Assembly (NCBI GenBank): GCA_946402315.1
Contig: CAMIWC010000003.1
Span: forward strand, 12,879-76,878
Length of the DNA: 64,000 nucleotides
Direction of reading: 5' to 3'
From: an uncultured Clostridium sp.
GTDB lineage: Bacteria; Bacillota_I; Bacilli_A; RF39; UBA660
The notes below the pieces were generated by a model. The model saw only the letters and a program-made list of their open reading frames with translations. It was not told where the DNA came from and did not search any database. This document shows, in pieces, positions 3-64,000 of this stretch. Position numbers and translations under genes: made by a program. Positions within the stretch are counted from its first letter, which is position 1. Each line of letters opens with the position of its first letter.

Positions 3-575
3 AAAAAGAATAATAAGAATCAATATACATATATATCAGGAGATATAGAAAATATAGTAGATGAGAATAATGTTGTAAAAAGAGATTTAGAAAAAATAGT
101 TTCAGAAGTTGCTACTAGACAAATAACTCAAGGAGCACCTTTTGATGTATATTTTGCTTCTCATCATGGATATAATAGCGCTAATACCGAAGGAGCATTA
201 GGACATGATAATGTAGATGGTACAATTAGCTTTAAAAATGTAATAGTACCTAACAATATTACTTATTTATGTGCATCAGTACCAAAAACAGGAGCAACAG
301 GAATAGCAAATATTTATAATAATCTTAGTAGAACTAATAAGAAAGAAGATAATGATATATATTTTTCTGGAGAAAGAGCTGTAATTGTATCGTATACAAA
401 ATCAGGAGTTAAAATTAATGGAGGTACAGTACTTAAGTGTAAAGGTAATAATAAAACAAATTCTTGTGCTACACCTGTAAGTGCAAGACAAACAGTCGTT
501 AATTTAGCTAAAGAAGTTCATCCAGAACAAAAGGATAAATGTCTTAAAAAGGAATCAATAATAGAAGATAAGTAA
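3..575 (+). CDS. C-terminal part of MBL-fold (ComEC/Rec2-like) hydrolase, 5' truncated by window edge
   Basis: Open frame from base 3 to TAA 573-575, read manually; contains DVYFASHHG, resembling the ComEC-type MBL 'xxHHG' motif. Confidence 0.55.
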   Translation, partial: KKNNKNQYTYISGDIENIVDENNVVKRDLEKIVSEVATRQITQGAPFDVYFASHHGYNSANTEGALGHDNVDGTISFKNVIVPNNITYLCASVPKTGATGIANIYNNLSRTNKKEDNDIYFSGERAVIVSYTKSGVKINGGTVLKCKGNNKTNSCATPVSARQTVVNLAKEVHPEQKDKCLKKESIIEDK

Positions 576-589
576 TAACTTATCTTTTT
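565..589 (+). terminator. Intrinsic terminator
   Basis: AAGATAAGT-AATA-ACTTATCTT followed by a T run. Confidence 0.7.
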
Positions 590-629
590 ATTTGAATAAT
601 TATTTGATACAATAAATTTGGTGATAAAT

Positions 630-2432
630 ATGGATAAATCTCATATTAGAAATTTCTCAATTATCGCTCATATAGATCATGGTAAAAGTACTTTAGCAGA
701 TAGAATATTAGAAGTAACTGGTGCTGTTAGTTCTAGAGAAGCTAAAGATCAATTACTAGATAGTATGGATATTGAAAGAGAAAGAGGAATTACAATTAAA
801 CTTAATACAGCATCTCTTCATTATACTTATAAAGATGAAGTTTATAATTTGAACTTAATAGATACTCCAGGACATGTAGATTTTTCTTATGAAGTATCAC
901 GTAGTTTAGCTGCTTGTGAAGGAGCTATTTTAATAGTGGATGCTACTCAAGGAATAGAAGCCCAAACTATTGCTAATATGTATCTTGCTATGGAAAATGA
1001 TTTAGCTATTATTCCTGTTATAAATAAGATTGATTTACCTAATGCTGATCCTAATAAAGTAAAAAAAGAAATAGTAAAAGTATTTGGTTATCAAGAAGAA
1101 GATATATTATGTGTCAGTGCTAAAACTGGAGAAGGAGTAAAAGAATTACTAGATCATATAGTTGAAGTTGTTCCTGCTCCAAAAGGAGATAAAAACGATA
1201 AATTACAAATGCTAGTATTTGATAGTATATTTGATTCTTATCGAGGAGTAGTTGTATCTGTTCGTGTAGTAAATGGTACAGTTCATGTAGGAGATACTAT
1301 TGAAATGATGTCTAATGGTAAAACCTATGATGTAGTAGAAATAATTAGACATACTCCAAAAGAAGAAAAACTAAATGAATTACATGCAGGAGAAGTTGGT
1401 TTTATAAGTGCGGCTATAAAAGATATAAGTGATATCTCAGTAGGTGATACTATAACTAACTTTAAAGATAAAGCAACTTCTAAACTTCCAGGATATAGAC
1501 CAATGAAATCAATGGTGTTCTGTGGATTATTTCCAATTGAATCAAATAAGTTTGAAGATCTAAGAGAAGCGCTTCAAAAATTAAAATTAAATGATGCATC
1601 TTTAGAATTTAGTCCAGAAACTTCAACTGCTTTAGGATTTGGATTTAGATGTGGATTCCTAGGACTATTACATATGGATGTAATAAAAGAAAGAATCACA
1701 AGAGAATTTAATATAGATATTATTACAACTGCACCTTCAGTTATATATGAAGTAGTTATGACTAGTGGTGAAATAATATATATAGATGCACCAAGCAAGA
1801 TGCCTGAAACAACTAAAATAAAAGAAATAAGAGAACCATATATTAAAACAAGTATTTTTACCCCTTCAGAGTACATTGGACCAATAATGGAATTATGCCA
1901 AGAAAAGCGTGGTAACTATGTCAATATGGAATACATAGATGAAACAAGAGTAAATCTTCATTATGAGATACCACTTTCAGAAGTAGTATATGATTTCTTT
2001 GATAAATTAAAAAGTTATACTAAAGGATATGCTTCATTTGATTATGAATTAATTGGTTATTTACCAAGCAACCTAGTAAAGATGGATATCTTATTAAATG
2101 GAGAAGTAATTGATGCACTAAGTATAATTGTCCATAAAGACTTTGCATATAATAGGGGTAAGAGTGTAGTAGAGCATTTAAAAGATGCAATTCCACGACA
2201 ATTATTTGAAGTACCAATACAAGCTGCAATTGGTCATAAGATAATAGCTAGAAGTACTGTTAAAGCTCTTCGTAAAGATGTACTAGCTAAATGTTATGGT
2301 GGAGATGTTACAAGAAAGAGAAAACTACTTGAAAAACAAAAAGAAGGTAAAAAGAAGATGAAACAAATAGGTAGTGTAGAACTTCCTCAAGAAGCATTTA
2401 TGAGTGTTTTATCTGATGATTATAATGAATAG
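630..2432 (+). CDS. lepA: Elongation factor 4 (LepA)
   Basis: [32 protein letters not shown] and C-terminal [21 protein letters not shown]; ATG 630 after GGTGAT. Confidence 0.98.
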
Positions 2433-2440
2433 AAAGGAGT

Positions 2441-3544
2441 ATGAATATGTATAAATCAATCTATATTCATATTCCTTTTTGTCATAACATTTGTTCTTAT
2501 TGTGATTTCTGTAAGATGTTTTATAACAAGGACTTAGTGGATAGATACTTAGATGAGTTAAAAAATGAATATGAATCTTTAAAAGAAGATAATATGATAG
2601 ATACAATCTATATTGGAGGAGGTACTCCTTCTAGTTTAAGTATGCAAGAGTTAGATAAATTATTTTCTATTTTTAAAGATATAGAACTAAGTACTAATTA
2701 TGAATTCACTTTTGAAATAAATCCAGAAGACATAACAGAAGAACTATTACAAAAATTAAAAGAAAACAAAGTAAATCGTATCAGTATAGGTATCGAAACT
2801 ATTAATGATAAGTTTTATAAGTTCTTAAACAGGTACAATAACAAAGAAGAATTATTAGAAAAGATAAATATATGTAAAAAGTACTTTAATAATATAAATA
2901 TCGATTTAATATATGCTTTTCCTAAAGAAACTATTAATGATTTGAAAAATGACTTAGATTTCTTTAAATTATTAGATGTAACTCATATATCTACATATTC
3001 TCTTATTATTGAAGATAATACTGTTATAGGTATAAATAATACTAAGTCTATATCAGAAGAATTAGATCGTGAAATGTATGATTATATTATTAATTACTTA
3101 GAAGATAATAATTACAATCATTATGAAATAAGTAATTTTTCTAAAGAAGGATATGAGTCTAAACATAATCTTACATATTGGAATAATGAAACATATTTAG
3201 GAATAGGTTTAGGTGCTTCAGGATATCTTAATAAAGTTCGTTATACTAATACTAGAAGTATAAATAAGTATCTAGATGGAGATTATATTTATGAAAAAGA
3301 AAAAGTGTCTACTAGACAGCAAGAAGAATATGAGATAATTCTAGGGCTTAGACAAGTAAAAGGTATAGAAAAAAATAAATTTTTTACTAAATATGGTGTA
3401 CATATAGAGGATGAATTTGATATATTAAATCTAGTGGATAAAAAATTAATTGAAGATAAAGATGGATATATTAGAATACCTAAAGATAAACTGTATATTG
3501 AGAATCAAATATTAATTAATTTTATAGGAGATAATGATGAATAA
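2441..3544 (+). CDS. hemW: Radical SAM heme chaperone HemW (HemN-like)
   Basis: YIHIPFCHNICSYCDF (CxxxCxxC), YIGGGTPS, YEISNF, HNLTYW; follows lepA as is typical. Confidence 0.9.
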   Translation: MNMYKSIYIHIPFCHNICSYCDFCKMFYNKDLVDRYLDELKNEYESLKEDNMIDTIYIGGGTPSSLSMQELDKLFSIFKDIELSTNYEFTFEINPEDITEELLQKLKENKVNRISIGIETINDKFYKFLNRYNNKEELLEKINICKKYFNNINIDLIYAFPKETINDLKNDLDFFKLLDVTHISTYSLIIEDNTVIGINNTKSISEELDREMYDYIINYLEDNNYNHYEISNFSKEGYESKHNLTYWNNETYLGIGLGASGYLNKVRYTNTRSINKYLDGDYIYEKEKVSTRQQEEYEIILGLRQVKGIEKNKFFTKYGVHIEDEFDILNLVDKKLIEDKDGYIRIPKDKLYIENQILINFIGDNDE

Positions 3545-4118
3545 AGTAGATTATTTTAAAAAAGAAATATCTTATATAAAAAATAATACCTTTAAAAAAG
3601 ATTTAAAACTTTTAATAGAAGGTATTCCTGATTATTTCTTTAGTATTCCAGCATCATCTACTGGTAAGTATCATCCTGAGTATACTACTGGTGAAGGAGG
3701 ATTGCTTCGTCATACCAAAGTAGTAACACGTATAGCTTATGATTTATTATCAAACCCATCTATTGGAAATAAATATACAAAAGAAGAAAAAGATTTAATG
3801 ATTATAGCATGTATTTTACATGATGGATTTAAATCTGGGGTAAATAAGGAACAATATACTAGATATGATCATCCTTTGATAGCAGCTAAGTATATTCGTG
3901 ATAGAAAAGAAGAATTAAGTATGAGTGAAGAAAACAATGAATTAATTGCATCTTGTATTGAAACTCATATGGGGCCTTGGACAACAGACTATAATGGAGT
4001 AGAGGTACTTAGTCCTCCAAAGACTAAATATCAAAACTTTGTTCATATGTGTGATTTCCTAGCAAGTAGAAAATTTTTATCAGTAAAATTTGATGAAGAA
4101 AATAATATTATTGATTAG
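3534..4118 (+). CDS. HD-domain phosphohydrolase
   Basis: ASSTGKYHP...GGLLRHT...ILHD...HMG...VHMCD. Confidence 0.85.
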   Translation: MMNKVDYFKKEISYIKNNTFKKDLKLLIEGIPDYFFSIPASSTGKYHPEYTTGEGGLLRHTKVVTRIAYDLLSNPSIGNKYTKEEKDLMIIACILHDGFKSGVNKEQYTRYDHPLIAAKYIRDRKEELSMSEENNELIASCIETHMGPWTTDYNGVEVLSPPKTKYQNFVHMCDFLASRKFLSVKFDEENNIID

Positions 4119-4126
4119 GAGGTTTT

Positions 4127-5326
4127 ATGAAATTATCAAATTTAAAAATTAAATTACTTGAAACTACACCATTTTTAAAAGAAGATGGTACATTTGATTT
4201 AAAACGTGCAATGGATTTCTCAGGAAAGGTAGGAGGAATTTGCTATAACGAAGATGGACTAATGGCATCTTTTGATGAACCACAAGAAAAAACAGATAAT
4301 AGAATTGCTAGTACTACTTCTAATGAACACCAAAGTGTATTTGAACATGTTAATATTGGGATGTATTTAAAAGATGCTTCAAAGATGCTTATTATGGTAT
4401 TAAACTGTGAACATCAATACGCTACAAGCGAAAGAAGTATGAGATACACTCCAATTAAAGAAGTTGCCTCAAATTTATCACCTGAAGAAATAGCTTTATA
4501 TAATAAATGGTATGAAATATTATTAAATAGAATTACTGCTGCTTATGGAGGTGTTTTAAAACCATTTAAGATTAAAACACTTGCTAAAGAAAATGCAAGA
4601 TATATGGCTTCAGTATTTTTAAATACTGAAATGTTACATACTATTCCTTTAGCTCAATTAAATAGAATAGTTGCTTATATGAAAGATTTTATGGCCAAAG
4701 AAGATAAGGATGATTTTGAAACTAGATTATCTCAAGACTTTGAAATGTTTATTGGAGAATGTTCTAGATTAAATCTTTTAGATGAAAGATTACAATCTAA
4801 CAGAAAACATAGAAAACTTGCTATATTTGGTGAAGATTTAGATAGTATTCCTGAAGAATTTGGGGTTACTTATTCAACAAACTATGTTGGATCATTTGTA
4901 GAATTTGCTCAAGCAGAAAGACATCGTAAAGGAGAATATCAATTAGAAAGAAATCCAGAAAACGGATTCTTTGTACCACCAATCATTGCTGATGATCCTG
5001 AATTAAAAGATGAATGGTTAAGAGATATGGAAAGTGTTAGAAAGTATTTCCCACAAGGAGAATTAGTTACAATTAATGAAAGAGGAAGTTTTGATACTTT
5101 TATTATGAAATTAAAAGAAAGAGATTGTTCAGCTGCTCAACTTGAAATATTTAGACAATCTAATGATACTAAACAAAAATATTATGATGCTTTAGCAGAA
5201 AAAGATCATCCGTTTGTTAAAAAGTTAGAGCCATACATGCATGGTAGAAGATGCTCATATTCTGACTTTGATTGTCCAAATCCATGTGGATTTAAAGAAG
5301 GAATAGACGGTAGTAGACGAGTATAG
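4127..5326 (+). CDS. thyX: Flavin-dependent thymidylate synthase, tandem two-domain form
   Basis: HQSVFEH, SERSMRY, AKENARY in the first half; QAERHR and KERDCSAAQLEI in the second half; directly upstream of tmk. Confidence 0.75.
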   Translation: MKLSNLKIKLLETTPFLKEDGTFDLKRAMDFSGKVGGICYNEDGLMASFDEPQEKTDNRIASTTSNEHQSVFEHVNIGMYLKDASKMLIMVLNCEHQYATSERSMRYTPIKEVASNLSPEEIALYNKWYEILLNRITAAYGGVLKPFKIKTLAKENARYMASVFLNTEMLHTIPLAQLNRIVAYMKDFMAKEDKDDFETRLSQDFEMFIGECSRLNLLDERLQSNRKHRKLAIFGEDLDSIPEEFGVTYSTNYVGSFVEFAQAERHRKGEYQLERNPENGFFVPPIIADDPELKDEWLRDMESVRKYFPQGELVTINERGSFDTFIMKLKERDCSAAQLEIFRQSNDTKQKYYDALAEKDHPFVKKLEPYMHGRRCSYSDFDCPNPCGFKEGIDGSRRV

Positions 5327-8639: not shown

Positions 8640-9902
8640 ATGAAAGTACTTAAAGATCAAAGTGGATTTACTATTATTGAATTGATACTTAGCTTTGTAT
8701 TTGTATTTACTATTGCTTTTTCTATGTATCAATTAGTATTTAATTATCGTGAAAAAAGGGATCAAGAAGCTATATATGCTACTATGACTGATTATAAGAA
8801 TGAAGTAGTATTAGCTATTCAAAGAGATTTAAATGATAGAGTTCTTAAAAGTATTGATTACTGTACTACTAACTCAGTACTAATACCTAGATGTTTAGTT
8901 CTATATTTTAATGATGGTACAAGTAAACAATTATCTGTAGAAACAGAACAAATTGAATATGATGGAGAATTAATTGATTCAGACTATATTAAATATGGAA
9001 ATGTAAATTATAAGAATGATGAAGCATTTTTAGTAGAGTTTAAAGCTAATTATATGTTATACAAAGTTCCTGAAGAAGAAATTAAAAGAAATAGAACTAT
9101 CTATAAAATAGCTATCCCTATTTATCATAATGATTTAGGAGATGAAGATTTTGGTATCTATATTGTCGCTGTTGGATTTAATTATAACAGTGCTACTGTA
9201 GATGGAGATGGAACTAGTGGAACATCTACACTTCCTGTATGGAGTAGTGAAGGTAGAACATTTTCTGCTGATAATCATACAAAATGTACTACTAGAGTTT
9301 TCTCGCATAATGATATATCTAGTCAAGTAATGATTGTTAGATTTAGAATAAATGATTTAGATAAATCAAAAGGTAGTCGTATTATGAGTAATATGAATAA
9401 TAATGGTTCTGCTTTATTTATTAATTCGTCTGGTAAGCTATGTTATGGAGCTTATACTTTAAGTACATTTAGTTCAAAACCAGTAGTCAAAACGGTATGT
9501 ACTTCATCTACTTTAGTTGAAGGAAAATGGTATAATATTGAAGCTGGATTTACAAAAACTGACCCAGGATACAATTTTTCTATTTATGGTCAAAGAGAAG
9601 ATGGAACAAATCTTGGTATAGTAATTACTTCATCCCAAAATAATGACTATAGAATAGCTGGATCTCATATGAATTACTCTATAGGTGCTGAGCCAGGAAA
9701 TGCTATTAATCTAGGATATTTTGATGGAACTATTCAAGATATTGCTTTATATAATGGAGTTGCTCCTAATTCTAATAATGCTAGAAATCTAGGTACTGGA
9801 AGTATTAACACAAAAATTGAACAAATCTATGGAACTGAAAAGAGAGTATTCCATTATGATTTTACAGATAACTCTGTATATGCAACCTATTGTTTAGAAT
9901 AA
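8640..9902 (+). CDS. Prepilin-type protein with C-terminal LamG/concanavalin-like domain
   Basis: QSG|FTIIE cleavage motif; C-terminal beta-rich segment with GKWYNI...YFDGTIQDIALYN resembling LamG. Confidence 0.75.
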   Translation: MKVLKDQSGFTIIELILSFVFVFTIAFSMYQLVFNYREKRDQEAIYATMTDYKNEVVLAIQRDLNDRVLKSIDYCTTNSVLIPRCLVLYFNDGTSKQLSVETEQIEYDGELIDSDYIKYGNVNYKNDEAFLVEFKANYMLYKVPEEEIKRNRTIYKIAIPIYHNDLGDEDFGIYIVAVGFNYNSATVDGDGTSGTSTLPVWSSEGRTFSADNHTKCTTRVFSHNDISSQVMIVRFRINDLDKSKGSRIMSNMNNNGSALFINSSGKLCYGAYTLSTFSSKPVVKTVCTSSTLVEGKWYNIEAGFTKTDPGYNFSIYGQREDGTNLGIVITSSQNNDYRIAGSHMNYSIGAEPGNAINLGYFDGTIQDIALYNGVAPNSNNARNLGTGSINTKIEQIYGTEKRVFHYDFTDNSVYATYCLE

Positions 9903-9954
9903 GAATACTAATGTATTCTTTTTTTATTTTTGTTATAATTATTTTGGTGGTCTT

Positions 9955-10983
9955 ATGAAAAGAATTAAAAGAATTAAAAATGCTATAATGCAATTTGTTG
10001 ATGAAAATATAAAAGAATTATTATTTATATTTGGTGCATATATAGTTTTATCAACACCATTACCATATTATATCTTAGTTTCTGGTGGAACTATAGAAGT
10101 AGATAATCGTGTTGAAATAAAAGAAGAATATGATACTGAAGGTAGTTTTAATTTAGCTTATGTAGATCAACTACAGGCTACATTACCTACCTATCTCTTA
10201 TCTAAAGTAATTGATTCTTGGACACTTTATAAAATGGAAGATTTTACATATGATTCAGAAGAAGATGCTAAAGATGTAGATGTAAGGGATAAGATTGATT
10301 TAGATAGTGCAATTCAAAATGCTGTAATTAATGCTTATCGAGAATCAGGAAAAGAATTTGTTATAAAGAATACTCATCATTATGTTTATTATGTAGATGA
10401 ACCAATTAAAGATAAAGGATTAGAAGTTGGTGATGAGATAGTTTCTATTAATGGTAAAGAATTTGCTAATATAACTGAATTTAAAGAAGAAATATCTAAA
10501 TTAGAAGTAGGAGATAAAGTAACCTTAAAATATATTAGAAAAGGTAAAGAAAAAATTGTATATTTAAAAGTACGTGAAGAAAATAATAGTAAGATTCTTG
10601 GTCTTATGGTTGTAACTATATATGACTATGAAACAATCCCTGAAATATCTTTTAAATTTGGTAAAAAAGAAGGAGGATCTAGTGGAGGTCTTACTTTAGC
10701 TTTAGCTATTTACAATAAATTAGTTGAGGAAGATATTACTCATGGTTATACAATTGTTGGAACTGGAACTATTGATGAAAATGGAGTAGTAGGGCCAATA
10801 GGTGGAGTTAAATATAAACTAAAAGGTGCCGTAAAAAAGAAGGCAGATATCTTCCTAGTACCTAATGGAGAAAACTATCAAGAAGCTATAAAAGAAAAAG
10901 AAAAACATAATTATAAGATTGATATTATTGGGGTTGATACATTTAGTGATGCTATAAAGAAATTAGAAGAATATAGTAAATAG
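9955..10983 (+). CDS. YlbL-like membrane-anchored PDZ/Lon protease
   Basis: N-terminal TM, PDZ (GLEVGDEIVSING), Lon S16 motifs GGSSGGL and GTGTI...IGGVKYK. Confidence 0.88.
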   Translation: MKRIKRIKNAIMQFVDENIKELLFIFGAYIVLSTPLPYYILVSGGTIEVDNRVEIKEEYDTEGSFNLAYVDQLQATLPTYLLSKVIDSWTLYKMEDFTYDSEEDAKDVDVRDKIDLDSAIQNAVINAYRESGKEFVIKNTHHYVYYVDEPIKDKGLEVGDEIVSINGKEFANITEFKEEISKLEVGDKVTLKYIRKGKEKIVYLKVREENNSKILGLMVVTIYDYETIPEISFKFGKKEGGSSGGLTLALAIYNKLVEEDITHGYTIVGTGTIDENGVVGPIGGVKYKLKGAVKKKADIFLVPNGENYQEAIKEKEKHNYKIDIIGVDTFSDAIKKLEEYSK

Positions 10984-54421: not shown

Positions 54422-54703
54422 ATGAAACACTATATTATTATTAAATTTAAAGATGGATACAATTACATAAATGAAATAGATAGTATTAATAATCTATTTA
54501 ATGAAGCATTAAGTATTAATGGAATTAATAAAATAAATATTTACAAATCTAATTCTAGTCTAAGTAATAGATATGATTTAATGATAGAAATGATTTTAAC
54601 TAAAGAAGCATTAACTGAATTTGATAATTCTTCGATTCATAAAAAATGGAAAGAAGATTATGGTAACACAATAGAAAACAAAGTAATATTTGACTGTGAA
54701 TAG
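54422..54703 (+). CDS. Dabb-like stress-responsive alpha/beta barrel protein
   Basis: MKHYIIIKFK...RYDLMIEM...HKKWK...KVIFDCE. Confidence 0.7.
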   Translation: MKHYIIIKFKDGYNYINEIDSINNLFNEALSINGINKINIYKSNSSLSNRYDLMIEMILTKEALTEFDNSSIHKKWKEDYGNTIENKVIFDCE

Positions 54704-54782
54704 GTAAAAAATAGGAATTCTACTGATAGTTCCTGTTTTTTTATAAAAGATATTATTAAGATTACATCATAAGGAGGATATT

Positions 54783-55802
54783 ATGAATCAATTAAAAATT
54801 GGAAGATTTATTAAAGAAAGAAGAAAAGAAAAGAATTTAACTCAAGAAGTATTGGCAGAAAAATTAAGAGTATCTAATCGAACTATATCTAAATGGGAAA
54901 ATGGTAATAGTATTCCAGATTATTCTATACTAAATGATTTATGTAAAGAATTAGATATTTCAATAGATGAATTATTTAAAGGAGAAAAAATTAATAAAAA
55001 TAATTATAAACAATTAGAAGAATTATTTAAATTAGATAAAAAGAAGAGAAGAAAAAGACTAATACTTATATTATTTTTAGTATTAATATTTTTATTTCTA
55101 ATGTATAAACTATTTATCTTTAATTTTTACATAACTAGAAATAAATCTGATCACCAAGATAATACTTTTCCCTATAATGAAAACATTTCAGATTTAACTA
55201 TTAAAAATAATGATAATGCTAATACAACTATAGATGATAAATTACATATTTATATTCCAGATAATTTTGTTCTAGTAACTGATAAATCTAAATCTCACTT
55301 TGTTAAAGATAACTGTAATACATATATAAATAATCTAGATGATAATAAATTCGATTCAGCTATCATAGTATGTAATAATGATTATGATAATATAATTAAC
55401 TTAGATCATTATGAAATAAATAATTCTATTATTCCATTTTTAGATGTAACTTCTACATTAAAGAAAAACAAAATTAATGATGTAATAGATATCATGAAAT
55501 ATTATCAAAAGCACTACAAAGATAAATTAAATATATTTACTAGTACTAATAAATTAAAGATGTATTACATCTCTAAAAAATATATAGATGAAGTAATACC
55601 TACATATAATAGTTTCTATTATATAAATGGTGATTTATATGGATATTTATTAAATAATAGTAATATTAATTATCAAATAAACATTTATTTTGAAGAAGAA
55701 AATCAAGATTATTCTTATAGTATTTCCTTTATAAATAATAAAGTAGAATACTTTAATTTAGATAATACTCTAGAAATAGTTAAAAGTATAAAAGTAGATT
55801 AA
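54783..55802 (+). CDS. XRE-family HTH regulator with TM and extracellular domain
   Basis: LTQEVLAEKLRVSNRTISKWENG then a TM helix. Confidence 0.85.
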   Translation: MNQLKIGRFIKERRKEKNLTQEVLAEKLRVSNRTISKWENGNSIPDYSILNDLCKELDISIDELFKGEKINKNNYKQLEELFKLDKKKRRKRLILILFLVLIFLFLMYKLFIFNFYITRNKSDHQDNTFPYNENISDLTIKNNDNANTTIDDKLHIYIPDNFVLVTDKSKSHFVKDNCNTYINNLDDNKFDSAIIVCNNDYDNIINLDHYEINNSIIPFLDVTSTLKKNKINDVIDIMKYYQKHYKDKLNIFTSTNKLKMYYISKKYIDEVIPTYNSFYYINGDLYGYLLNNSNINYQINIYFEEENQDYSYSISFINNKVEYFNLDNTLEIVKSIKVD

Positions 55803-55863
55803 TTCTACTTTTTTTGTTATAATTAAAAGGATTATTATTCTATTTAATAGTATAAGGAGATTT

Positions 55864-56529
55864 ATGGAAGTAAAAAGTATAAGTGAAATAAATGGTATAA
55901 ATTTAGTAGAAAATACTGATTTAAATATTTTATCAGTAGGTATAAGTACTGCTGGTAATGCTGAAATAGAAATGGCTAAAAAGAATCCTAATTGTCATAT
56001 TATTGCAACTACTATAGATGAAGAGGGTATAAAACTAACTAAAGAAGTAATAACTAAGCAAGGATTAGAAGATAGAATAGAATTAAAGATAGAAGATATA
56101 TCTAAAAAAATGAAATATAAAGATAACTACTTTGATTATATTTATGCTAGATTAGTTCTTCATTATTTAGATAATGAAAAATTAAAGAATGCATTAACTG
56201 AAATATATAGAGTATTAAATACAAATGGAAAATTTTTTATTGTAGTACGTAGTATAAATGCATGGGAAACTAAATTAGAGGGAACTTCTTATGATGATGT
56301 AACAGGTTTAACTAAATGTATTGATCTTAAATCAAAAGATACAGATAGTATTAAATATTATTATAGAAGATTACATAGTAAAGAATCTATTACTAAATTT
56401 CTAGAAGAAGCTGGATTTAAAATAGAACACATAAAAATATATGATGAATATTTAAGTATTGATTATAATAGAAAACAAATGAACGATAAGCCTAGTGAAC
56501 TTATAGAAGTTTTAGCACGAAAAGTTTAG
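55864..56529 (+). CDS. Class I SAM-dependent methyltransferase
   Basis: ILSVGISTAG, FDYIYARLVLHYL, RVLNTNGKFFI. Confidence 0.82.
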   Translation: MEVKSISEINGINLVENTDLNILSVGISTAGNAEIEMAKKNPNCHIIATTIDEEGIKLTKEVITKQGLEDRIELKIEDISKKMKYKDNYFDYIYARLVLHYLDNEKLKNALTEIYRVLNTNGKFFIVVRSINAWETKLEGTSYDDVTGLTKCIDLKSKDTDSIKYYYRRLHSKESITKFLEEAGFKIEHIKIYDEYLSIDYNRKQMNDKPSELIEVLARKV

Positions 56530-56558
56530 ATATAGATTATATAATTGGAGATGATATT

Positions 56559-56957
56559 ATTAGAAAAATTATTATAGCTGGTAGTTCATCATTTTATAAA
56601 GAAGCTCTTGAAATAAAAAAAGAACTTGAAAAGATAAACTATGATGTCATTGATTATCCTAAAAAAATTAATGATGATAATAAACTTGAATATAAAAAAA
56701 CATATGAAAACTTTTATAATAATTTAAATAAAACAAACGATTTATTATTACTTAATATGGATAAAAAAGGAATTGAAGGTTATATTGGATATGAATCTTT
56801 TGCGGAATTAAGTTATTTAATTGTAAATAAAATACAAACTAATAAAAATCATAAAATATATATTTATAAAATGCCAAGCACTAGAGTTGGATGTTATGAT
56901 GAAATAAAACAATTTTTAGATATTGGTTATATTGAAATATTTAAAAATAATAACTAA
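56559..56957 (+). CDS. Hypothetical 132-aa protein with probable ATT start (NDT/Maf-like flavodoxin-type fold)
   Basis: Frame is open ~200 nt upstream of the track ATG (56757); GGAGATGAT RBS then ATT-AGA-AAA-ATT; RKIIIAGSSSF...LLLNMDKKGIEGYIGYESFAEL. Confidence 0.6.
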   Translation: MRKIIIAGSSSFYKEALEIKKELEKINYDVIDYPKKINDDNKLEYKKTYENFYNNLNKTNDLLLLNMDKKGIEGYIGYESFAELSYLIVNKIQTNKNHKIYIYKMPSTRVGCYDEIKQFLDIGYIEIFKNNN

Positions 56958-56966
56958 GGAGAATTT

Positions 56967-57431
56967 ATGTTAAGAATTTTTGATAAGGATAAAGAAATAA
57001 AATATGATATTAATACATATATAACTGATATATTTCCATTAGAGAATTTTTCTGCTTTTGGATTAACTATGGATGGAATATATTTTAAAACAGGTGAACA
57101 CGCATTCCAATATTTAAAATTTAAAGATAAGGATATATGTAACAAAATAATCAACTGCAACAACCCATATGAAGCAAGAATATTGGGTGGGGAGAACAAG
57201 AGTAAAAGAATTCCAAATTGGTCTGAAGTTAAATATGATTATTTAGAAAAAGTATTTAGATTAAAAGTTGAACAAGATCCTAAAGTCAAAGAAGCTTTAC
57301 TTGCTACTAAAGATTATCAAATATGTGAATACTGTGTTGATGAAGATACTGAATGGGGATTAGACAAAAATGGTAATGGAGAAAATAGATTAGGTAAAGC
57401 ATGGATGAATGTTAGAAATAGTCTAAGATAG
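56967..57431 (+). CDS. NADAR (YbiA-like) family protein
   Basis: LENFSAF, FKTGEHAFQYLKF, NWSEVK, LLAT, EWG...GENRLGKAWMNVR. Confidence 0.88.
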   Translation: MLRIFDKDKEIKYDINTYITDIFPLENFSAFGLTMDGIYFKTGEHAFQYLKFKDKDICNKIINCNNPYEARILGGENKSKRIPNWSEVKYDYLEKVFRLKVEQDPKVKEALLATKDYQICEYCVDEDTEWGLDKNGNGENRLGKAWMNVRNSLR

Positions 57432-57600
57432 ATTATTCATAGGTATCATTTTTTATATACGAGAAATAACTAGGTAAAGAATTACTATAAATGATGAAAA
57501 TATAATTGAATCAGATAATTCTAGAAAAAATATTTTGATAGAGAAAATAAAAATATTATAAAAATAATAAAAATGAAATTAAAAAAATAGAGGTGATACT

Positions 57601-57876
57601 ATGGTAATATTTTGTACAGCATATTATGTACTAAGTTATATTCAATCAATACCACAAATAATTAAACTAATAAAAAATAAATCAAGTAATGATTATAGTT
57701 TAGGTACAATAGCATTAAAATTATTAGCTTTAATATGTTGGTCATTATATATATTTACATCCGTACAAAGTATTGTTGTATATATAGGAACAATTACTGA
57801 TTTAATATTACTTCTATTTGAAGATTTTTTAATTATTAAATACTATAAATTTAATATAAAAAGGAGAAATGCTTAA
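57601..57876 (+). CDS. PQ-loop / SemiSWEET-like small membrane protein
   Basis: IPQIIKLIKNKSSNDYSL; three TMs. Confidence 0.8.
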   Translation: MVIFCTAYYVLSYIQSIPQIIKLIKNKSSNDYSLGTIALKLLALICWSLYIFTSVQSIVVYIGTITDLILLLFEDFLIIKYYKFNIKRRNA

Positions 57877-58271
57877 TGAATACATTCAATATTATTAATG
57901 AATTAGTTGTATCAAATATAACTGAGTCAATAGAGTTTTATAATAATTATTTTGGATTTGTTGTAGAACAGACTGATGGAAATCCAATATCATGGGTACA
58001 ATTAAGTAAAAATGGTGAAACACTAATGTTAGAAGATTACAAGATAGTAGAAAGTGAGATTCATAATTATCCCAAAAAAGCAAATAGTAGTAATATAATA
58101 AAGTTCGAATATAATAATTTAGATGAATTTAAAGAACTATATAATAAACTTAAAGAAAACAAAATAGAATTTATAATAGAATATACAGAAACTGATTATG
58201 GCAAAGTAGAATTTGGAATATATGATTTGGATAGAAATATTATATTAATTTCATCATTTATGAATATTTAA
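57876..58271 (+). CDS. VOC/glyoxalase family protein
   Basis: LVVSNITESIEFY...FGF, TDYGKVEFGIYDLDRN. Confidence 0.85.
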   Translation: MNTFNIINELVVSNITESIEFYNNYFGFVVEQTDGNPISWVQLSKNGETLMLEDYKIVESEIHNYPKKANSSNIIKFEYNNLDEFKELYNKLKENKIEFIIEYTETDYGKVEFGIYDLDRNIILISSFMNI

Positions 58272-58349
58272 ATAATTAATTGATTAATGATGTTTTAAAG
58301 GGATAATAAATTGATTAAAATGAATTAGATAATATAAAAAGGTGATATT

Positions 58350-59513
58350 ATGGATGAAAAATTAAAGAAAAAGAATCATTTTATTCATTTTATTGAAAAA
58401 TGGTTTATTATTGGTATTATATTATTTATTATCATTCAGCTTACTGCTTTAAAAATAATAGATGCTTTTATTCCAAAAAATCAAAGACTTAATTATGACC
58501 AATATGAAGAATATGATAAAGATTATATTGGTCATTGGTACAATGGAACTTTCTTCATTACTATGACTGTTAATGAAAATTTTGAAAGTCAAGAAAAGTA
58601 TGAAGAAATGAACGAAAAATGTCAAAATGATTTAGGAAGAAAAATATGCTTTTTTGCAGGAAATATAGCTATAATAGTAGGTTTTTCATTTTTATGTATT
58701 GCTGCATATAATGAAAGAAAAATGAAACTATTAAAAGGTTATACTCCTAATTATATTATTCTAGGAGGACTATTTTTATTAATATATAAAATAATTGAAG
58801 AAATTGATTTATATATAGAGGTATTGTATTGGAATAAATATAGTAAAGGTTTTTTAAATACCGTTAGTTATTACCCACAAATGCATTATATATTTATTAT
58901 TCCAATGTTACTTATTTTTATGGGTTTAATAATTAGACAAAAACAAAGAAAAAATCTTAAATTATCAATAAATAATAATGAAAAAATAATTAAAATAGTT
59001 AGTGTTTTTACATTAATAATTGGTTTATCTTTTATTCTATATAGATTTGGAATAAGATTGTATGAATTAATGAATATGAATTCAAGTATAAATATTAGAC
59101 TGCCATTTTATTATTATATTTTTGATTTACCAAGAAGTTATGCTTCATCAGCTGCATATTCAAAATTAATTATATTGAGATTTATAAAAGATTTACCTAT
59201 TTTTATAACCTCAACTAGTTCTTTAATTTTGTTTTATAAAATAGTTTTATCTTCTATAAATAGTAAAATAATATCAAAAGAAAATAATAAGAGATATAGA
59301 ATTATCTTTATTTCATTAATAGTTGCTTCATTAATATTTAATATTTTAGGATTATATGAAGTTAAATTATTAAATAATGAATTCTTATATCAATATAAAG
59401 ATGCAACTTATACAATTGCTTTAAGAAGCATAACAGAACCATTATTATATGGATTATTTATATATATATTTAAACATTATATAGAATTAGCTTATACTAT
59501 GAAAGATAAATAA
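58350..59513 (+). CDS. Multi-pass membrane protein (possibly DUF2975-like)
   Basis: About 8 hydrophobic helices; family guess is weak. Confidence 0.6.
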   Translation: MDEKLKKKNHFIHFIEKWFIIGIILFIIIQLTALKIIDAFIPKNQRLNYDQYEEYDKDYIGHWYNGTFFITMTVNENFESQEKYEEMNEKCQNDLGRKICFFAGNIAIIVGFSFLCIAAYNERKMKLLKGYTPNYIILGGLFLLIYKIIEEIDLYIEVLYWNKYSKGFLNTVSYYPQMHYIFIIPMLLIFMGLIIRQKQRKNLKLSINNNEKIIKIVSVFTLIIGLSFILYRFGIRLYELMNMNSSINIRLPFYYYIFDLPRSYASSAAYSKLIILRFIKDLPIFITSTSSLILFYKIVLSSINSKIISKENNKRYRIIFISLIVASLIFNILGLYEVKLLNNEFLYQYKDATYTIALRSITEPLLYGLFIYIFKHYIELAYTMKDK

Positions 59514-59533
59514 TTTAAAAAGAGGTGAAATAA

Positions 59534-59881
59534 ATGATTATGCATTTGGATCCAGATGTATTTGAAGTTGTAAAATATGGTATTAAGAATATTGAAGCAA
59601 GAGTAAATGATGAAAAAAGAAGAAAATTAAAAGTTGGAGATAAAATAACAATTCTAAAAAGATTAGAAGAAACCGAACAAATTACAGCTATAGTAGAAGA
59701 TTTAAATTATTATGATAATTTTATTGATTTAGTTGCAGATTATACAATTGAAGAACTATATTTAAAAAAATATACAAAAGAAGATTATATAAATTTGTTA
59801 AAAAGATTTTATTCGGATGAAGAAATAAATCAAAATGGTGTTGTAGCTATAAAATTCAAAATTATAGATAGAATTAATTAA
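59534..59881 (+). CDS. ASCH domain protein
   Basis: GIKNIEARVNDEKRRKLKVGDKI. Confidence 0.88.
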   Translation: MIMHLDPDVFEVVKYGIKNIEARVNDEKRRKLKVGDKITILKRLEETEQITAIVEDLNYYDNFIDLVADYTIEELYLKKYTKEDYINLLKRFYSDEEINQNGVVAIKFKIIDRIN

Positions 59882-59945
59882 TAATATTATAATAATTGAT
59901 TCCTGGTATTGATGGTTAAAGTTTTGATAGACGAGGTGAATTTGA

Positions 59946-60389
59946 ATGGATAAAAAAATAAGAAAAGCAGTTAGAACGTACCTAATAGAAGATAATAGAG
60001 TTGTTGTTATAAATTATAAAGAACATGATAGTGGATATTATGATATTCCTGGTGGAAAAATTGAAGATGGTGAAACTGCTTATGAAACATCTATAAGGGA
60101 GTTTAAAGAAGAAACTGGTATAACAATTACAAGACAACATTGTATCGGCCATAATACTATTGAATATCCTGAAAGAATATTTGAATTTGATGTGTTTGTT
60201 GTTGATGAGTATTCTGGTGAACCTCTTGAATTTGAAGAAAATAAATCTATGTGGTTTAATATAGCTGATTTATATAAAGAAAGAAAATTATTTCCAAGTA
60301 TTGGAGTAATAAAATATCTAAAAGATAATATGAATATAAAAGTAGATTGTGATAGTAATCATAAGATATTAAGTATTGAAAATAAATAA
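59946..60389 (+). CDS. NUDIX hydrolase
   Basis: Nudix box PGGKIEDGETAYETSIREFKEETG. Confidence 0.92.
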   Translation: MDKKIRKAVRTYLIEDNRVVVINYKEHDSGYYDIPGGKIEDGETAYETSIREFKEETGITITRQHCIGHNTIEYPERIFEFDVFVVDEYSGEPLEFEENKSMWFNIADLYKERKLFPSIGVIKYLKDNMNIKVDCDSNHKILSIENK

Positions 60390-60456
60390 AGAGTTGATCC
60401 AAATGGATGAAAATATAACTAATATAAACTGGTTGATAACAATTCAGTCAAGACCA
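60388..60456 (+). repeat. Copy A of rbgA 5'-end repeat plus downstream arm (putative att junction)
   Basis: AAAGAGTTGATCCAAATGGATGAAAATATAACTAATATAAACTGGT|TGATAACAATTCAGTCAAGACCA. Confidence 0.9.
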
Positions 60457-60476
60457 AGAAAAAAGGAAGTGTAATA

Positions 60477-60998
60477 ATGAATTATACAATTAGATTAGCT
60501 AATCAAAATGATTGCAAAGAATTATCTGAATTAAAACATCAGGTTTGGACGGAAACATATCGTGGCATATATAGTGATGAAAAAATTGATAATTTTGATT
60601 ATTTAAAAAATGAAAAATATTTTTTAGATATAATTAATAACAAAAGCATAGATTTATATATTGTTGAAGATCAAAATAAAATTGTTGGTTACATGAGTTG
60701 TGGAACGCCACTTAGGCCATATAAAGATTATAAACAAGATGTTGGATTGCTATATATATTACAGAAATATCAAAGAAAAGGGATTGGAAAAGAGCTTTTT
60801 AATATAGCTTATAGAAGTATTAAAGAAAATGGATATAAAAAATTTTTTATAAGTTGTAATAAATATAACACTTCTGCTCAAGCATTTTATAAAAAAATGG
60901 GTGGAATAATAGATTGTATAGATGATGACAATATTGATAAATCACTTCCACAAATTAAATTTATTTATAAAATAAAAGGAGTTGATACAAATGAATAA
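60477..60998 (+). CDS. GNAT N-acetyltransferase
   Basis: VWTETYRGI, KIVGYM, LYILQKYQRKGIGKEL, AFYKKMGG. Confidence 0.92.
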   Translation: MNYTIRLANQNDCKELSELKHQVWTETYRGIYSDEKIDNFDYLKNEKYFLDIINNKSIDLYIVEDQNKIVGYMSCGTPLRPYKDYKQDVGLLYILQKYQRKGIGKELFNIAYRSIKENGYKKFFISCNKYNTSAQAFYKKMGGIIDCIDDDNIDKSLPQIKFIYKIKGVDTNE

Positions 60999-61046
60999 TG
61001 AAAATAAAACAAATATAAACTGGTTGATATTGATTTAGTCTAGCCA
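60975..61046 (+). repeat. Copy B of rbgA 5'-end repeat plus downstream arm (putative att junction)
   Basis: AAAGGAGTTGATACAAATGAATAATGAAAATAAAACAAATATAAACTGGT|TGATATTGATTTAGTCTAGCCA. Confidence 0.9.
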
Positions 61047-61211
61047 TTCATGAAACTCCTATAAAATAAGGAAATACTAATATTTAGTAATTACATAATT
61101 TAATAAATAATTACTGAAAAGTATTAAAAATATATAAAAAATAGTCAAAAATAGCATAGTATTTGATACTTGATGTTGACGGTTAACCAATTAATAAGAG
61201 AGGTGAAAAAA

Positions 61212-61670
61212 ATGAATGAATTAGAAGAATATTTAAAGCAAGATGTTTTTAATCCTAAATATTTATTTCATGGTACAGCACATGAAATAGAAAAGCTAGA
61301 ATGTAGACAATCTACTGATAGCAAGAATAAGGATAATGAAGATAATGCTATATTTTTAACAAGTTCATTTTATACAGCTGCTGCTTATGCTTTCAGCAGA
61401 CGTTTAAAAGAAATAAATGAACACTATTCATTTTCTATGAATAATAACGGTGAATTACCAGCTATGATATTTGAGGTAGATAATTTGCCAGATGATTTAT
61501 GTGGGTATGTTTATGTTTTTGAAAAAAGTGATGATATGATAAAAGATAATCACCAATGTACTACTCAATATAGATGTTATCATGATTTAAAGCCGCAAAA
61601 AGTTATCAAAATTAGTTATAAAGATTTTGAAGAATTTTTTAATAGAGAAAATAAGTCTAAAAAGATGTAG
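61212..61670 (+). CDS. Hypothetical protein, possible ADP-ribosyltransferase-like fold
   Basis: AGAGGTGA RBS, ATG 61212; YLFHGT...AIFLTSS..TAAAYA...GYVYVF pattern. Confidence 0.6.
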   Translation: MNELEEYLKQDVFNPKYLFHGTAHEIEKLECRQSTDSKNKDNEDNAIFLTSSFYTAAAYAFSRRLKEINEHYSFSMNNNGELPAMIFEVDNLPDDLCGYVYVFEKSDDMIKDNHQCTTQYRCYHDLKPQKVIKISYKDFEEFFNRENKSKKM

Positions 61671-61671
61671 A

Positions 61672-61718
61672 AAAGGAGATAATCCAAATGAATGAAAATA
61701 AAACTAATATAAACTGGT
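61672..61718 (+). repeat. Copy C: functional RBS and 5' end of rbgA
   Basis: AAAGGAGATAATCCAAATGAATGAAAATAAAACTAATATAAACTGGT|ATCCTGGA. Confidence 0.9.
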
Positions 61719-62563
61719 ATCCTGGACATATGGCTAAAACTAGGAGAGAAATAAAGGATAATATAAATCTAGTTGATATAGTTTATGAAGTAATTGATTC
61801 TAGAATGCCTCTAAGTAGTAAAATCATTGATATAGATGAACTTATTGGTAATAAAGATAAAGTACTTATTATGACTAAATATGACTTATGTGATAAGACT
61901 GAAACAGATAAATTTATAAAATATTATAAGAGTCTTGGATATAAAGTTCTTCCTTTAGATCTTATTAATATGAAAGATGTATCTAAGAAAGTTTTAGAAA
62001 TAAGTAATGATACTTATACTAAAATGAATGATATACGTAAAAATAAGGGGCTTAAACCTCGTAGTTTACGCGCTATGGTTATTGGAGTACCTAATGTAGG
62101 TAAATCTACTTTAATTAATCGTTTAGTTAATAAAAAAGCTGTTAATGTAGGAAACACTCCTGGGGTTACAAAGACTATTAGTTGGATTAGAATTAATAAA
62201 GACCTAGAACTATTGGATACTCCTGGAATACTTTGGCCTAAGTTAGAAAATCAAAAATTTGCTCATAATTTAGCAGTACTTTCATCTATTAAAGAAGAAA
62301 TACTTGATCCAGAACAATTAACTAGTTATATAATTGAAATATTATATAATTTATATCCAGAACAATTAAAAACTAGATATGGAATAGATAAAGTAGACTT
62401 TGATAATTTATTTGATTTATATGATCAAATAGGTAAAAATAGAGGAGCTTTACTTAAAGGTAATTTAGTAGATTATGATAAAGTATTTAGTATTATTATT
62501 AATGATTTAAAAACCAATAAATTTGGTAATATTACTTTTGATAGAATAGAAGAAGTAGAATAA
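61688..62563 (+). CDS. rbgA: Ribosome biogenesis GTPase RbgA (YlqF)
   Basis: INWYPGHMAK, DSRMPLSS, TKYDL, GVPNVGKST, GVT, DTPGILWPK. Confidence 0.97.
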   Translation: MNENKTNINWYPGHMAKTRREIKDNINLVDIVYEVIDSRMPLSSKIIDIDELIGNKDKVLIMTKYDLCDKTETDKFIKYYKSLGYKVLPLDLINMKDVSKKVLEISNDTYTKMNDIRKNKGLKPRSLRAMVIGVPNVGKSTLINRLVNKKAVNVGNTPGVTKTISWIRINKDLELLDTPGILWPKLENQKFAHNLAVLSSIKEEILDPEQLTSYIIEILYNLYPEQLKTRYGIDKVDFDNLFDLYDQIGKNRGALLKGNLVDYDKVFSIIINDLKTNKFGNITFDRIEEVE

Positions 62564-62631
62564 TACTTCTTTTTTTATTTTGTTCTTTAAAAAAATAGAC
62601 ATTGTTGATAAAATATTATTAGGTGATTAAA

Positions 62632-63732
62632 ATGAAGGAATTTATAGATTTATTAGAAAATCTTACAAATGTTGTATTTAAAGGTTTAAATAATTTATCA
62701 GAGAAAATTACATCAGGAAAACATAGTGTTATGATTAAAACTATAATTAGAGTGGTCTTAATAATACTACTATTCTGGTTAATAGGAATACTATTTAACG
62801 CTATAGAATATTTAGGAGTATTTATTATATATACTGTAGGAATGTCTGGAAGATTAGTTGTTTCTACAATATGGAAAATAATTGTAGAATTAACTTATGC
62901 TTTATTTATTATCGTAGCTTTATATAAATTACTTGCTAATTATAAGAATAATTCTAAAGAGAAATTACTATTTAAAAATAAAAAGAAAGATGATAAAGCT
63001 AAAGATAAGTTCTTTAGTACAGCAAATATATTTATTAAAGTACTATCTATAATCATATTAATTCCATTATTTATCGTAGATATTGGTGCTTTATATGTAT
63101 TTGGTTTACTATTTGGACTTATTGGAGAAGGTATAAACTTATCTAGTTTATTTATAATGGTATTTGGTATTATCTTATTTGTTACATCTCTAATATTATT
63201 AGTTAAGAGTCTATTATCAAATAATGATAAAATACCTAGTAAATTCTTCTTTGTTACAATAGTATCTATCTTTGTAATGGCATTTAGTGGAATCTTATTT
63301 GTAATTGAAACTAAAGATTATAAGAGAGTAGATTCTCTTACAAATGATTTTAAGATTACTACTATTAGACAACAATATAAATTGGATTCTAAAAAGAAAT
63401 ATATTATTTCTAATAATGGTGGATTAAGAAAAATTAATGTTATTTATGATGATGACTTAGGTAGTTATATGGAAGTAGAAATAAAACATTATACTACTAG
63501 TTCTATTGATACTTATGTAAGAGAAGGAAATAAAGAAACAATAATTAGTTATAATCAAGATCTAAAACTAGAATTTGAAGATATTGAAAAAGTATATAAT
63601 TTAGTTCTTTCTTGTTTAAAAGAAAAGAGAATATATAATTATAATTTATTAAAATATGGGGATATTACTATTAGAGTATCTAGTGAATATAAAGATAACA
63701 TTAAAGTAGCTAACAGAGTAGAAAATGATTAA
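62632..63732 (+). CDS. Hypothetical multi-pass membrane protein
   Basis: Several TMs followed by a soluble C-terminal domain. Confidence 0.7.
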
Positions 63733-64000
63733 TATAAATAATTATGAATATGAACAAGAATTAATAGATCAAGGTATTACTTTAATAGCAGGAGTAGATG
63801 AAGTAGGTCGTGGTCCTTTAGTAGGTCCAGTTGTTGTAGCAGCGGTTATTCTTCCAATTGGATATAAATTAGAAGGATTAACTGATAGCAAAAAGTTATC
63901 TATCAAAAAAAGAGAATACTTCTATGATATTATTATGAGAGATGCTATTGATGTTTCTATTGCTTTAGAGAGTGAATTGGTAATAGATGATATAAATATT
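63725..64000 (+). CDS. rnhB: Ribonuclease HII, 3' truncated by window edge
   Basis: [24 protein letters not shown]...LTDSKKLS. Confidence 0.95.

Follow-up and report, generated by a model that had tools for sequence, protein, structure and literature searches.

The 5' end of rbgA is a described attachment site of integrative and conjugative elements (ICEs) of the Tn5252/Tn5253 type in streptococci (PMC4701971, PMC8571831). Tn5253 enters the rbgA coding sequence (CDS) of streptococci and enterococci after nucleotide 20, on the downstream side of a conserved 11-bp core, and rebuilds the CDS through duplication of the site (PMC8571831). Here we describe the start of rbgA (ylqF), which encodes a ribosome-biogenesis GTPase, in the metagenome-assembled genome (MAG) of an uncultured Clostridium sp. 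(assembly GCA_946402315.1). The window, that is the whole 64,000-nt stretch of contig CAMIWC010000003.1 that was analyzed and to which all coordinates refer, carries upstream of this gene a stack of small gene units bounded by copies of the rbgA start. Positions 60434-61718 are best explained as two non-autonomous integrative cassettes inserted site-specifically via a serine recombinase, a reading to which we assign a probability of about 75%. The Tn5253 site appears to be the same codon position, just past the Trp of IQWFPGHM in S. pneumoniae.

As at the locus described here, the Tn5252/Tn5253 ICEs use the first codons of rbgA as attB, and the element brings a duplicated 5' end that restores the CDS. 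They differ in being ~65 kb long and present in single copy, with a tyrosine integrase and a conjugation module, whereas the units here (0.3-5.2 kb) are one-gene cassettes, together with 3-5 kb elements that carry a serine recombinase; they lack transfer genes and form arrays of up to at least 10. The staphylococcal cassette chromosome (SCC/SCCmec), inserted at rlmH (orfX) by CcrAB or CcrC, is likewise associated with a large serine recombinase and the end of a conserved housekeeping gene. Each SCC element brings a replacement gene end, leaving direct repeats between tandem elements, and many stacked elements without a recombinase (pseudo-SCC) would depend on its supply in trans. SCC sits at the 3' end of rlmH and the present units at the 5' end of rbgA, so that each of the latter must supply a ribosome-binding site (RBS), a start codon, N-terminal codons and often a promoter. 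In addition, SCC units measure 3-60 kb, whereas those here are mostly single genes of 0.5-1.5 kb. The one recombinase here, of ~410 amino acids (aa), scores 90 bits against the NCBIfam CcrB model (cut-off 900), and there is no Ccr orthologue; the host organisms, uncultured Bacilli of rumen and gut, have genomes of ~1 Mb.

In integrons, as at this locus, functionally unrelated cassettes, most of them single genes, are captured serially at one site, where the newest adjoins the platform. The range of cargo is also similar (GNAT, NUDIX, VOC, small enzymes, toxin-antitoxin and defence-like genes), and some cassettes are promoter-less. Unlike integrons, the locus has no IntI and no attC (its junction lacks the attC type of palindrome), cassettes mostly come with a promoter-like arm of their own, and the counterpart of attI lies within the coding start of an essential gene. 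Tycheposons and the accretion of cis-mobilizable and of integrative and mobilizable elements resemble it in that autonomous elements and others that lack an integrase use common att sites and accumulate in tandem beside a conserved gene, forming a hypervariable island in small genomes; they differ in using mainly tyrosine recombinases, tRNA genes or 3' gene ends, and larger units. By analogy, the closest counterpart in mechanism would be SCC at rlmH and in function the integron, and we rate the locus as site-specific accretion at a conserved gene end, miniaturized to one-gene cassettes at the start of an essential gene. A full-text literature search found no paper describing rbgA cassette arrays or a serine-recombinase cassette system of this kind. 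A first-pass annotation, made from the sequence alone, had proposed serial integration of minimal one-gene cassettes, which the relatives support; its label of integron-like holds for function only, as this is not an integron. The same annotation knew of no described cassette system attached at rbgA; the attachment site is in fact already known from the Tn5252/Tn5253 ICEs, and it is the use by arrays of one-gene cassettes that appears undescribed.

The rbgA start was found three times in the window. A 28-nt probe (AATGAAAATAAAACTAATATAAACTGGT) matched at 60406-60433 (2 mismatches), 60997-61024 (1 mismatch) and 61691-61718 (0 mismatches), with no match in 100 dinucleotide-preserving shuffles when up to two mismatches were allowed. 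A repeat finder carried the identity upstream through the RBS, giving copies at 60383/60388-60433, 60974/60976-61024 and 61668/61672-61718, spaced 591 and 694 nt from start to start, with ATG codons at 60403, 60991 and 61688. When aligned, the three copies (A, B and C) are in register up to ..AACTGGT. Immediately after TGGT, copies A and B both read TGATA(A/T)(C/T)(A/G)ATT(C/T)AGTC(A/T)AG, and the real gene (copy C) reads ATCCTGGACATATGGC, coding W-Y-P-G-H-M-A. Copy B has one codon more than the others (a 3-nt indel), and the three cores also differ by substitutions. The first-pass description of the triplicated RBS and first ~10 codons, the start codons, the 591- and 694-bp units, the switch of A and B to a common TGATA arm exactly at the breakpoint, and the substitutions and indel was thus reproduced. 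Its cargo assignments (NUDIX, GNAT and ADP-ribosyltransferase (ART)-like) also hold by the open reading frame (ORF) list and Pfam, the last only weakly, and the search it proposed for the core elsewhere in the genome (a MAG of 0.96 Mb in 15 contigs, 74% complete) returned only the three window copies. The features of the locus are as follows.

59892-59945, + strand: remnant of the 3' part of a long arm (putative expression module) upstream of the NUDIX gene; matched in alignment by the ART-cassette arm (3' part) and by two cassette arms of relative G023.
59946-60389, + strand: NUDIX hydrolase gene (Pfam NUDIX, E=1.7e-14), assigned to an older unit as its cargo; the stop codon directly adjoins core A.
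60388-60433, + strand: core A, a stranded (decoy) rbgA RBS, ATG (60403) and 10 codons, ending in TGGT; left half of an attL/attP-like junction.
60434-61024, + strand: GNAT cassette, 591 bp, comprising a short arm, RBS, GNAT ORF and replacement rbgA start B.
60434-60455, + strand: short promoter-less arm of the GNAT cassette (TGATAACAATTCAGTCAAGACC).
60477-60998, + strand: GNAT acetyltransferase ORF (Pfam Acetyltransf_1/10/7, E ~1e-13).
60976-61024, + strand: core B, a second stranded rbgA RBS, ATG (60991) and 11 codons, ending in TGGT.
61025-61718, + strand: ART-like cassette, 694 bp, comprising a long arm, an ORF and the functional replacement rbgA start.
61025-61211, + strand: long arm, with half-site TGATATTGATTTAGTC on the recombinase side, palindrome CTCCTATAAAATAAGG, a TTACAT hexamer and a conserved 5' leader.
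61212-61670, + strand: cargo ORF of 152 aa, weakly ADP-ribosyltransferase-like (Pfam ART-PolyVal, E=8e-4, below cut-off).
61672-61718, + strand: core C, the working RBS and first 31 nt of rbgA, supplied by the ART-like cassette; left half of an attR/attB-like site.
61715-61718, + strand: TGGT, a Trp codon and the first base of a Tyr codon; putative crossover.
61688-62563, + strand: rbgA (ylqF), ribosome-biogenesis GTPase; resident chromosomal gene from 61719 on.

The GNAT and ART-like units are each bounded by junctions and contain one ORF and no recombinase. The last seven codons of the GNAT ORF run through the RBS and start of core B (60976-60998) and are therefore encoded by the repeat. At the other end of this cassette, the decoy-A start opens a 23-codon ORF (60403-60474) that stops 2 nt before the GNAT ATG, an arrangement in which translational coupling is possible. 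The RbgA protein itself scores 322.5 bits against TIGR03596 (YlqF; cut-off 208).

This anatomy suggests that the GNAT cassette and then the ART-like cassette were inserted serially into the first rbgA codons at TGGT. A cassette of this plan comprises an arm with a recombinase half-site, with or without a promoter-like leader, followed by the cargo ORF and by an RBS, ATG and ~10 surrogate codons ending in TGGT. Its integration, presumably from a circular intermediate, would strand the previous rbgA start as a decoy (A, B) and fuse the cassette's own start (C) to the gene, so that the newest cassette would adjoin rbgA and be co-transcribed with it. The ~410-aa recombinase would be supplied in trans from 3-5 kb elements with the same ends. 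With a surrogate start like the one replaced, attR would resemble attB and attL would resemble attP; the site would thereby stay receptive and arrays would grow.

The rbgA gene was located in 40 relatives and the upstream DNA compared. The rbgA 5' ends fall into several unrelated types whose distribution does not follow taxonomy. The window type, MNENKTNINW, recurs near base-for-base in other genera with an rbgA body only ~70% identical, and species of the window's own genus carry other types. In relative G023, of another genus, two units have the core and the ~190-nt arm of the window's ART-like unit, with NUDIX and FMN reductase as cargo. In G020, a window-type core leads into another kind of arm, after which come a RhuM-like gene and a working rbgA start of quite another type. 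A family search with the arm, together with reading of ten loci, revealed arrays of up to seven units (e.g. G061, G069, G066, G196 and G095), located to that side of rbgA which in G069 and G021 is occupied by rplS and lepB. Contigs begin or end within ~210 nt upstream of rbgA in 8 of ~38 relatives (G001, G004, G009, G014, G019, G005, G022 and G016), as would be expected of short-read assemblies at a repeated or polymorphic site.

A junction model was built from 48 distinct junctions, each an rbgA start joined to an arm (TGATnnnnATTTA), and covered positions -18 to +72 around the breakpoint. Its best match in the window is core B with its arm (61007-61096, 69.6 bits, E=8.8e-21), and core A is matched at 60417-60464 (model R1, 26.3 bits, E=3e-7). 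Applied to 401 genomes sampled from this family of uncultured Bacilli of rumen and gut, it gives matches in 142 of them and in 102 of the 214 genera; those of any one genome are grouped on a single contig, 0.7-2 kb apart, and number up to at least 10. In 24 loci, 67 junction-bounded units could be delimited (median 942 bp, range 306-5159), with one to five ORFs, a single ORF of at least 60 aa in 44 of the 67, and neither a tyrosine integrase nor a conjugation module. Their 112 cargo proteins form 85 clusters and are very diverse, including GNATs, NUDIX, MazG, HD, UDG-like, RhuM, Bro-N, barstar, HEPN and reverse transcriptase (RT) proteins; zeta-toxin-like and other P-loop kinases, APH phosphotransferase and FMN reductase; and YbaK-type editing domains, DUF1653, methyltransferases and ABC transporters.

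Whole cassettes have spread horizontally. A full 731-nt cassette is 94% identical between G066 and L102, whose rbgA genes are 68% identical, and another is 96% identical between G196 and G069. With further cases, whole cassettes reach 94-97% identity between genomes with rbgA 68-69% identical, and cargo clusters recur at different array positions with different neighbours. The comparison of relatives suggested in the first-pass annotation therefore yielded variable numbers of repeat-bounded units, with a breakpoint that always follows ..A(C/T)TGGT.

The position of this breakpoint is the same for unrelated rbgA starts. The 5' ends MNENKTNINW, ..KVFSNTVINW, ..KVFQKSQINW, ..EEVYKIGINW and ..NRQNSTINW all join arms exactly after TGGT, such that unrelated left halves (..ACTAATATAAACTGGT, ..ACGGTTATCAATTGGT, ..AGCCAAATCAATTGGT, ..ATCGGTATCAACTGGT and ..TCCATTTCGTGGT) directly meet arm variants beginning TGATATTG.., TGATAACA.., TGATTACG.., TGTTCTGT.., ATAAACCG.. 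or AAAGTACG.., where rbgA continues (A/T)(T/C)CC. Only TGGT is common to the attP-like, attB-like, attL and attR configurations. Working (attB-type) sites do not vary at positions -4 to -1, and junctions hardly do; in arms, +1 to +4 (TGAT) and +9 to +13 (ATTTA) are conserved. TGGT lies within the conserved INW(Y/F)PGHM motif, and the target is therefore held constant by protein function. These patterns place the probable crossover at TGGT; attL and attR that share only a very short central sequence are characteristic of large serine recombinases.

A large serine recombinase of ~410 aa was found within the arrays of relatives (G098, G066 and G007). It contains the domains Resolvase (PF00239), Recombinase (PF07508) and Zn_ribbon_recom (PF13408), and its nearest characterized relatives are the TnpX catalytic domain (E=5.5e-30) and SPbeta SprA, with the CcrB and XisF models below threshold. 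A scan of GTDB genomes returned 17 close homologues; the MAGs concerned come from rumen, reindeer and human gut and bear the labels Bacilli, Tenericutes or Erysipelotrichaceae. The rbgA gene lies 0.1-1.7 kb downstream of 10 of these homologues, and three more are located between junctions, so that 13 are at rbgA or in arrays. The recombinase units open 1-3 kb upstream, where an arm (TGATATTGTTTTATTCAACCCC) adjoins a decoy rbgA start; at their other end, a TATAAT-type promoter and an RBS precede a ..KVFSNTVINW or ..KVFQKSQINW start that is fused to rbgA. They measure 3.1-5.2 kb and have both ends in common with the small units, and thus the same architecture. In L103, a cassette that arrived later has stranded the start of the recombinase unit itself (..CAAATCAATTGGT joined to TGATTACG). 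In the family sample, where a search at 1e-80 also drew 520-550-aa phage and ICE integrases and only ~410-aa open frames above ~300 bits were counted, the subfamily again lies beside junctions in G110, G310, G119, G252 and G332. As it occurs repeatedly within arrays and with the same ends, we take this protein to be, most likely, the integrase of the system, and the one-gene units to be its non-autonomous passengers. That the small cassettes are themselves mobilized in trans today is a more tentative proposition, to which we would give slightly less than an even chance.

Two further proteins were seen in recombinase units. An RT-like protein of 526-550 aa (RVT_1, E=1e-7, YxDD) travels with the recombinase (L097 8241-9821, L112 8104-9756), and a HEPN protein accompanies it in other units; both are possible defence cargo.

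Several observations weigh against the cassette reading. The first-pass annotation had noted that the window lacks a recombinase. This absence extends to the MAG for the large serine type, with the proviso that the MAG is 74% complete; the search for an orphan recombinase recommended there found only two Xer-sized tyrosine recombinases, one 17 kb away and one on another contig. The serine recombinase would have to act on this genome in trans, or to have been lost. Its subfamily is present in only ~15-17 of the 401 family genomes, as against 142 with junctions, and G069 and G138 contain arrays with no resolvase-domain match at all; incompleteness of MAGs and the loss of mobile DNA in binning may contribute to these gaps. 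A full junction-model search of the window found no older junctions upstream of A and B. No circles, no empty sites and no strain-level gain or loss at a junction were seen: a look-up of the exact RbgA protein gave one contig with the same array, and for the UMGS1271-type RbgA, 22 contigs from many samples had an identical array. Arms and cargo are not strictly linked, and one ART gene, 94% identical, stands in unrelated flanks. Therefore other recombination, homologous or illegitimate, also shapes these regions, where junctions decay and cassettes fuse into operons, and some 'cassettes' may be remnants of larger elements rather than self-moving units. Finally, MAG assemblies can wrongly join arrays at repeated cores.

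The alternative that survives best, which we nevertheless consider unlikely, is that the one-gene units are not mobile as such: they would be decay products of larger, serially accreted recombinase-bearing elements that lost the recombinase and most of the cargo, and would spread by homologous recombination across the repeated cores and rbgA. The ends that small units share with the recombinase-bearing units would fit this, as would the decay of junctions, the fusion into operons, the reassortment of arms and cargo, and arrays that look fixed within species. However, the small units are uniformly compact and mostly bear a 5' type of their own, MNENKTNINW, unlike the types of the recombinase units. 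The same complete cassette also occurs at 94-97% identity in different genera with different neighbours. In addition, cassettes follow non-homologous decoys (KVFQKSQINW joined to TGATTACG in L103), which is not expected from homologous recombination.

It is less probable still, and distinctly so, that the same cassettes are moved at this site by a tyrosine recombinase, either the integrase of a visiting Tn5252/Tn5253-type ICE or the host XerC/XerD. ICEs at the rbgA site encode tyrosine integrases (PMC4701971), Tn5253 enters and restores rbgA as set out above, and the only recombinases of the MAG are of the tyrosine class. By our own reading, TAATATAAACT in the core may also resemble a XerD arm, agreeing with that of B. 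subtilis at 9 of 11 positions. Against this, no tyrosine integrase was found beside the arrays of 15 relatives, where the serine recombinase is seen repeatedly, and the unrelated 5' ends share only TGGT, which is too little for a Xer or tyrosine core with a 6-8 bp overlap inside the upstream core. A separate search for a dif site led to rejection of the dif/Xer hypothesis: the MAG has no B. subtilis-like dif at up to 6 substitutions, and looser patterns were unconvincing.

A triplication made by assembly, from collapsed or chained strain variants, is very improbable: repeated cores of ~45 nt do break or mis-join short-read assemblies, and many relatives' contigs end here, but the three cores differ from one another, equivalent arrays lie on long contigs or closed MAGs (L099, a circular chromosome; G149 and G342, single contigs), and an independent assembly (ENA ERZ12289775, NODE_19706) is 99.9% identical over 58307-64000, with 6 mismatches, no gaps and the same gene order (membrane protein, ASCH, NUDIX, GNAT, ART-like, rbgA), which makes a one-off misassembly unlikely.

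Turning to the arms of the cassettes, the long arm of the window is 83-89% identical to arms in four other genera, and the ~190-nt type occurs with other cargo in G023, G073, G066, G061 and L151. Short arms of the GNAT-cassette type are also present in G073 and G069. Conservation points to a possible promoter function for the arm. Of 66 arms, only 17 have a canonical -35/-10 spacing behind the conserved TTGCAT/TTACAT; a promoter scan gave 36 promoter-like sites where 30.8 were expected, which is uninformative at 24% GC, and the same scan found no terminators. No structured RNA or riboswitch was matched in Rfam at E<=0.1 over 56000-62000. A hairpin at CCTTATAAAATAAGG was rejected, with 75.8% paired as compared to 77.3% in shuffles and covariation values not above shuffles on any measure.

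The long arm was also observed in front of at least four cargos, namely ART-like, NUDIX, FMN reductase and GNAT (window 61025-61211; L049 1-190 and 697-882; L151 799-985). Its conserved 3' part (..AAAAATAGCATAGTATTTGATACTTGnTnTTGAnGGTTAA..GAGGTG) is without an Rfam match.

In the case of the ART-like cargo (61212-61670), an ART fold is plausible. Of 32 family members, 19 weakly match Pfam ART-PolyVal (best 1.8e-5), and an AlphaFold2 model (pLDDT 89, pTM 0.85) has as its best PDB matches the rifampin ADP-ribosyltransferase Arr (2hw2, 9iaf), at E=0.086 (~0.1) and TM 0.40-0.43. The family comprises 159 homologues, many on cassette-sized contigs. Members were found in a two-gene unit adjoining rbgA (L115), mid-array (L118), ahead of a NUDIX cassette and then rbgA (L120), in a complete 704-nt cassette with a different arm (L123), and ahead of a GNAT cassette with the window-type long arm (L151); in L118, L120, L123 and L151 both the arm and the neighbours of the gene differ from those in the window. 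A further pair of contigs (L124 3738, L125 1763) is 99.98% identical downstream and wholly different upstream of an identical ART-like gene. The breakpoint, which coincides with a terminator-like hairpin (AAAGAGGA..TCCTCTTT), has no rbgA context and looks like a second kind of variable-region boundary.

Upstream of the two recognizable units, the arm remnant marks the NUDIX gene as a probable older cassette that has lost its left junction. Homologues of the genes further upstream are cassette cargo elsewhere: NADAR is 53% identical to cargo in G095, PQ-loop 79% to cargo in G196 and ASCH 45% to cargo in G066. The accessory island that holds these genes (54422-59881) probably represents an ancient portion of this stack that has since decayed. 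Together, these homologues and the ~55 nt ahead of the NUDIX gene suggest that the stack is older and longer than two units. Downstream of rbgA, rnhB is located at 63725.

Some features of other loci were noted in passing. The UMGS1271-type human-gut array (L140-L145) contains, in order, RhuM, a class-A beta-lactamase-like protein (Beta-lactamase2), a Zn-ribbon protein, DpnD/PcfM, the serine recombinase, the RT-like 526-aa protein and then rbgA, with the same gene order in 22 contigs. An IS110-family transposase (DEDD_Tnp_IS110 and Transposase_20; L090 of G196, 9274-10470, minus strand) directly follows the last array junction. In L116 (~1740-1810), as compared to L115, rbgA contains an insertion or duplication of ~66 nt and is split into two predicted ORFs, which may reflect either an error of assembly or a disrupted allele.

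A stronger form of the cassette reading would make the rbgA start the serine-recombinase counterpart of an integron platform, where a recombinase supplied in trans both inserts cassettes and removes the one proximal to rbgA. No directionality factor would be needed because the surrogate start would make attR equal to attB and attL equal to attP. We lean marginally against this proposal. If it is true, cargo transcription would be tied to an essential gene, which would guarantee expression and retention of the newest cassette.

If the proposed mechanism is true, a 5' gene end would be usable as an attachment site, with the element supplying promoter, RBS and N-terminus, and a small recombinase with defined natural attP/attB pairs would be a possible tool for genome engineering. 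It would also account for the hypervariable region and the assembly break that recur in these MAGs, and would provide a catalogue of mobile cargo of uncultured gut bacteria (acetyltransferases, phosphotransferases, class-A beta-lactamase-like, ART-like and defence-like genes). A large and little-known group of gut and rumen Bacilli with reduced genomes would then renew its accessory genes by a compact system that, though built of different parts (a serine recombinase and an attachment site in an essential gene's coding start), is analogous to the integron.

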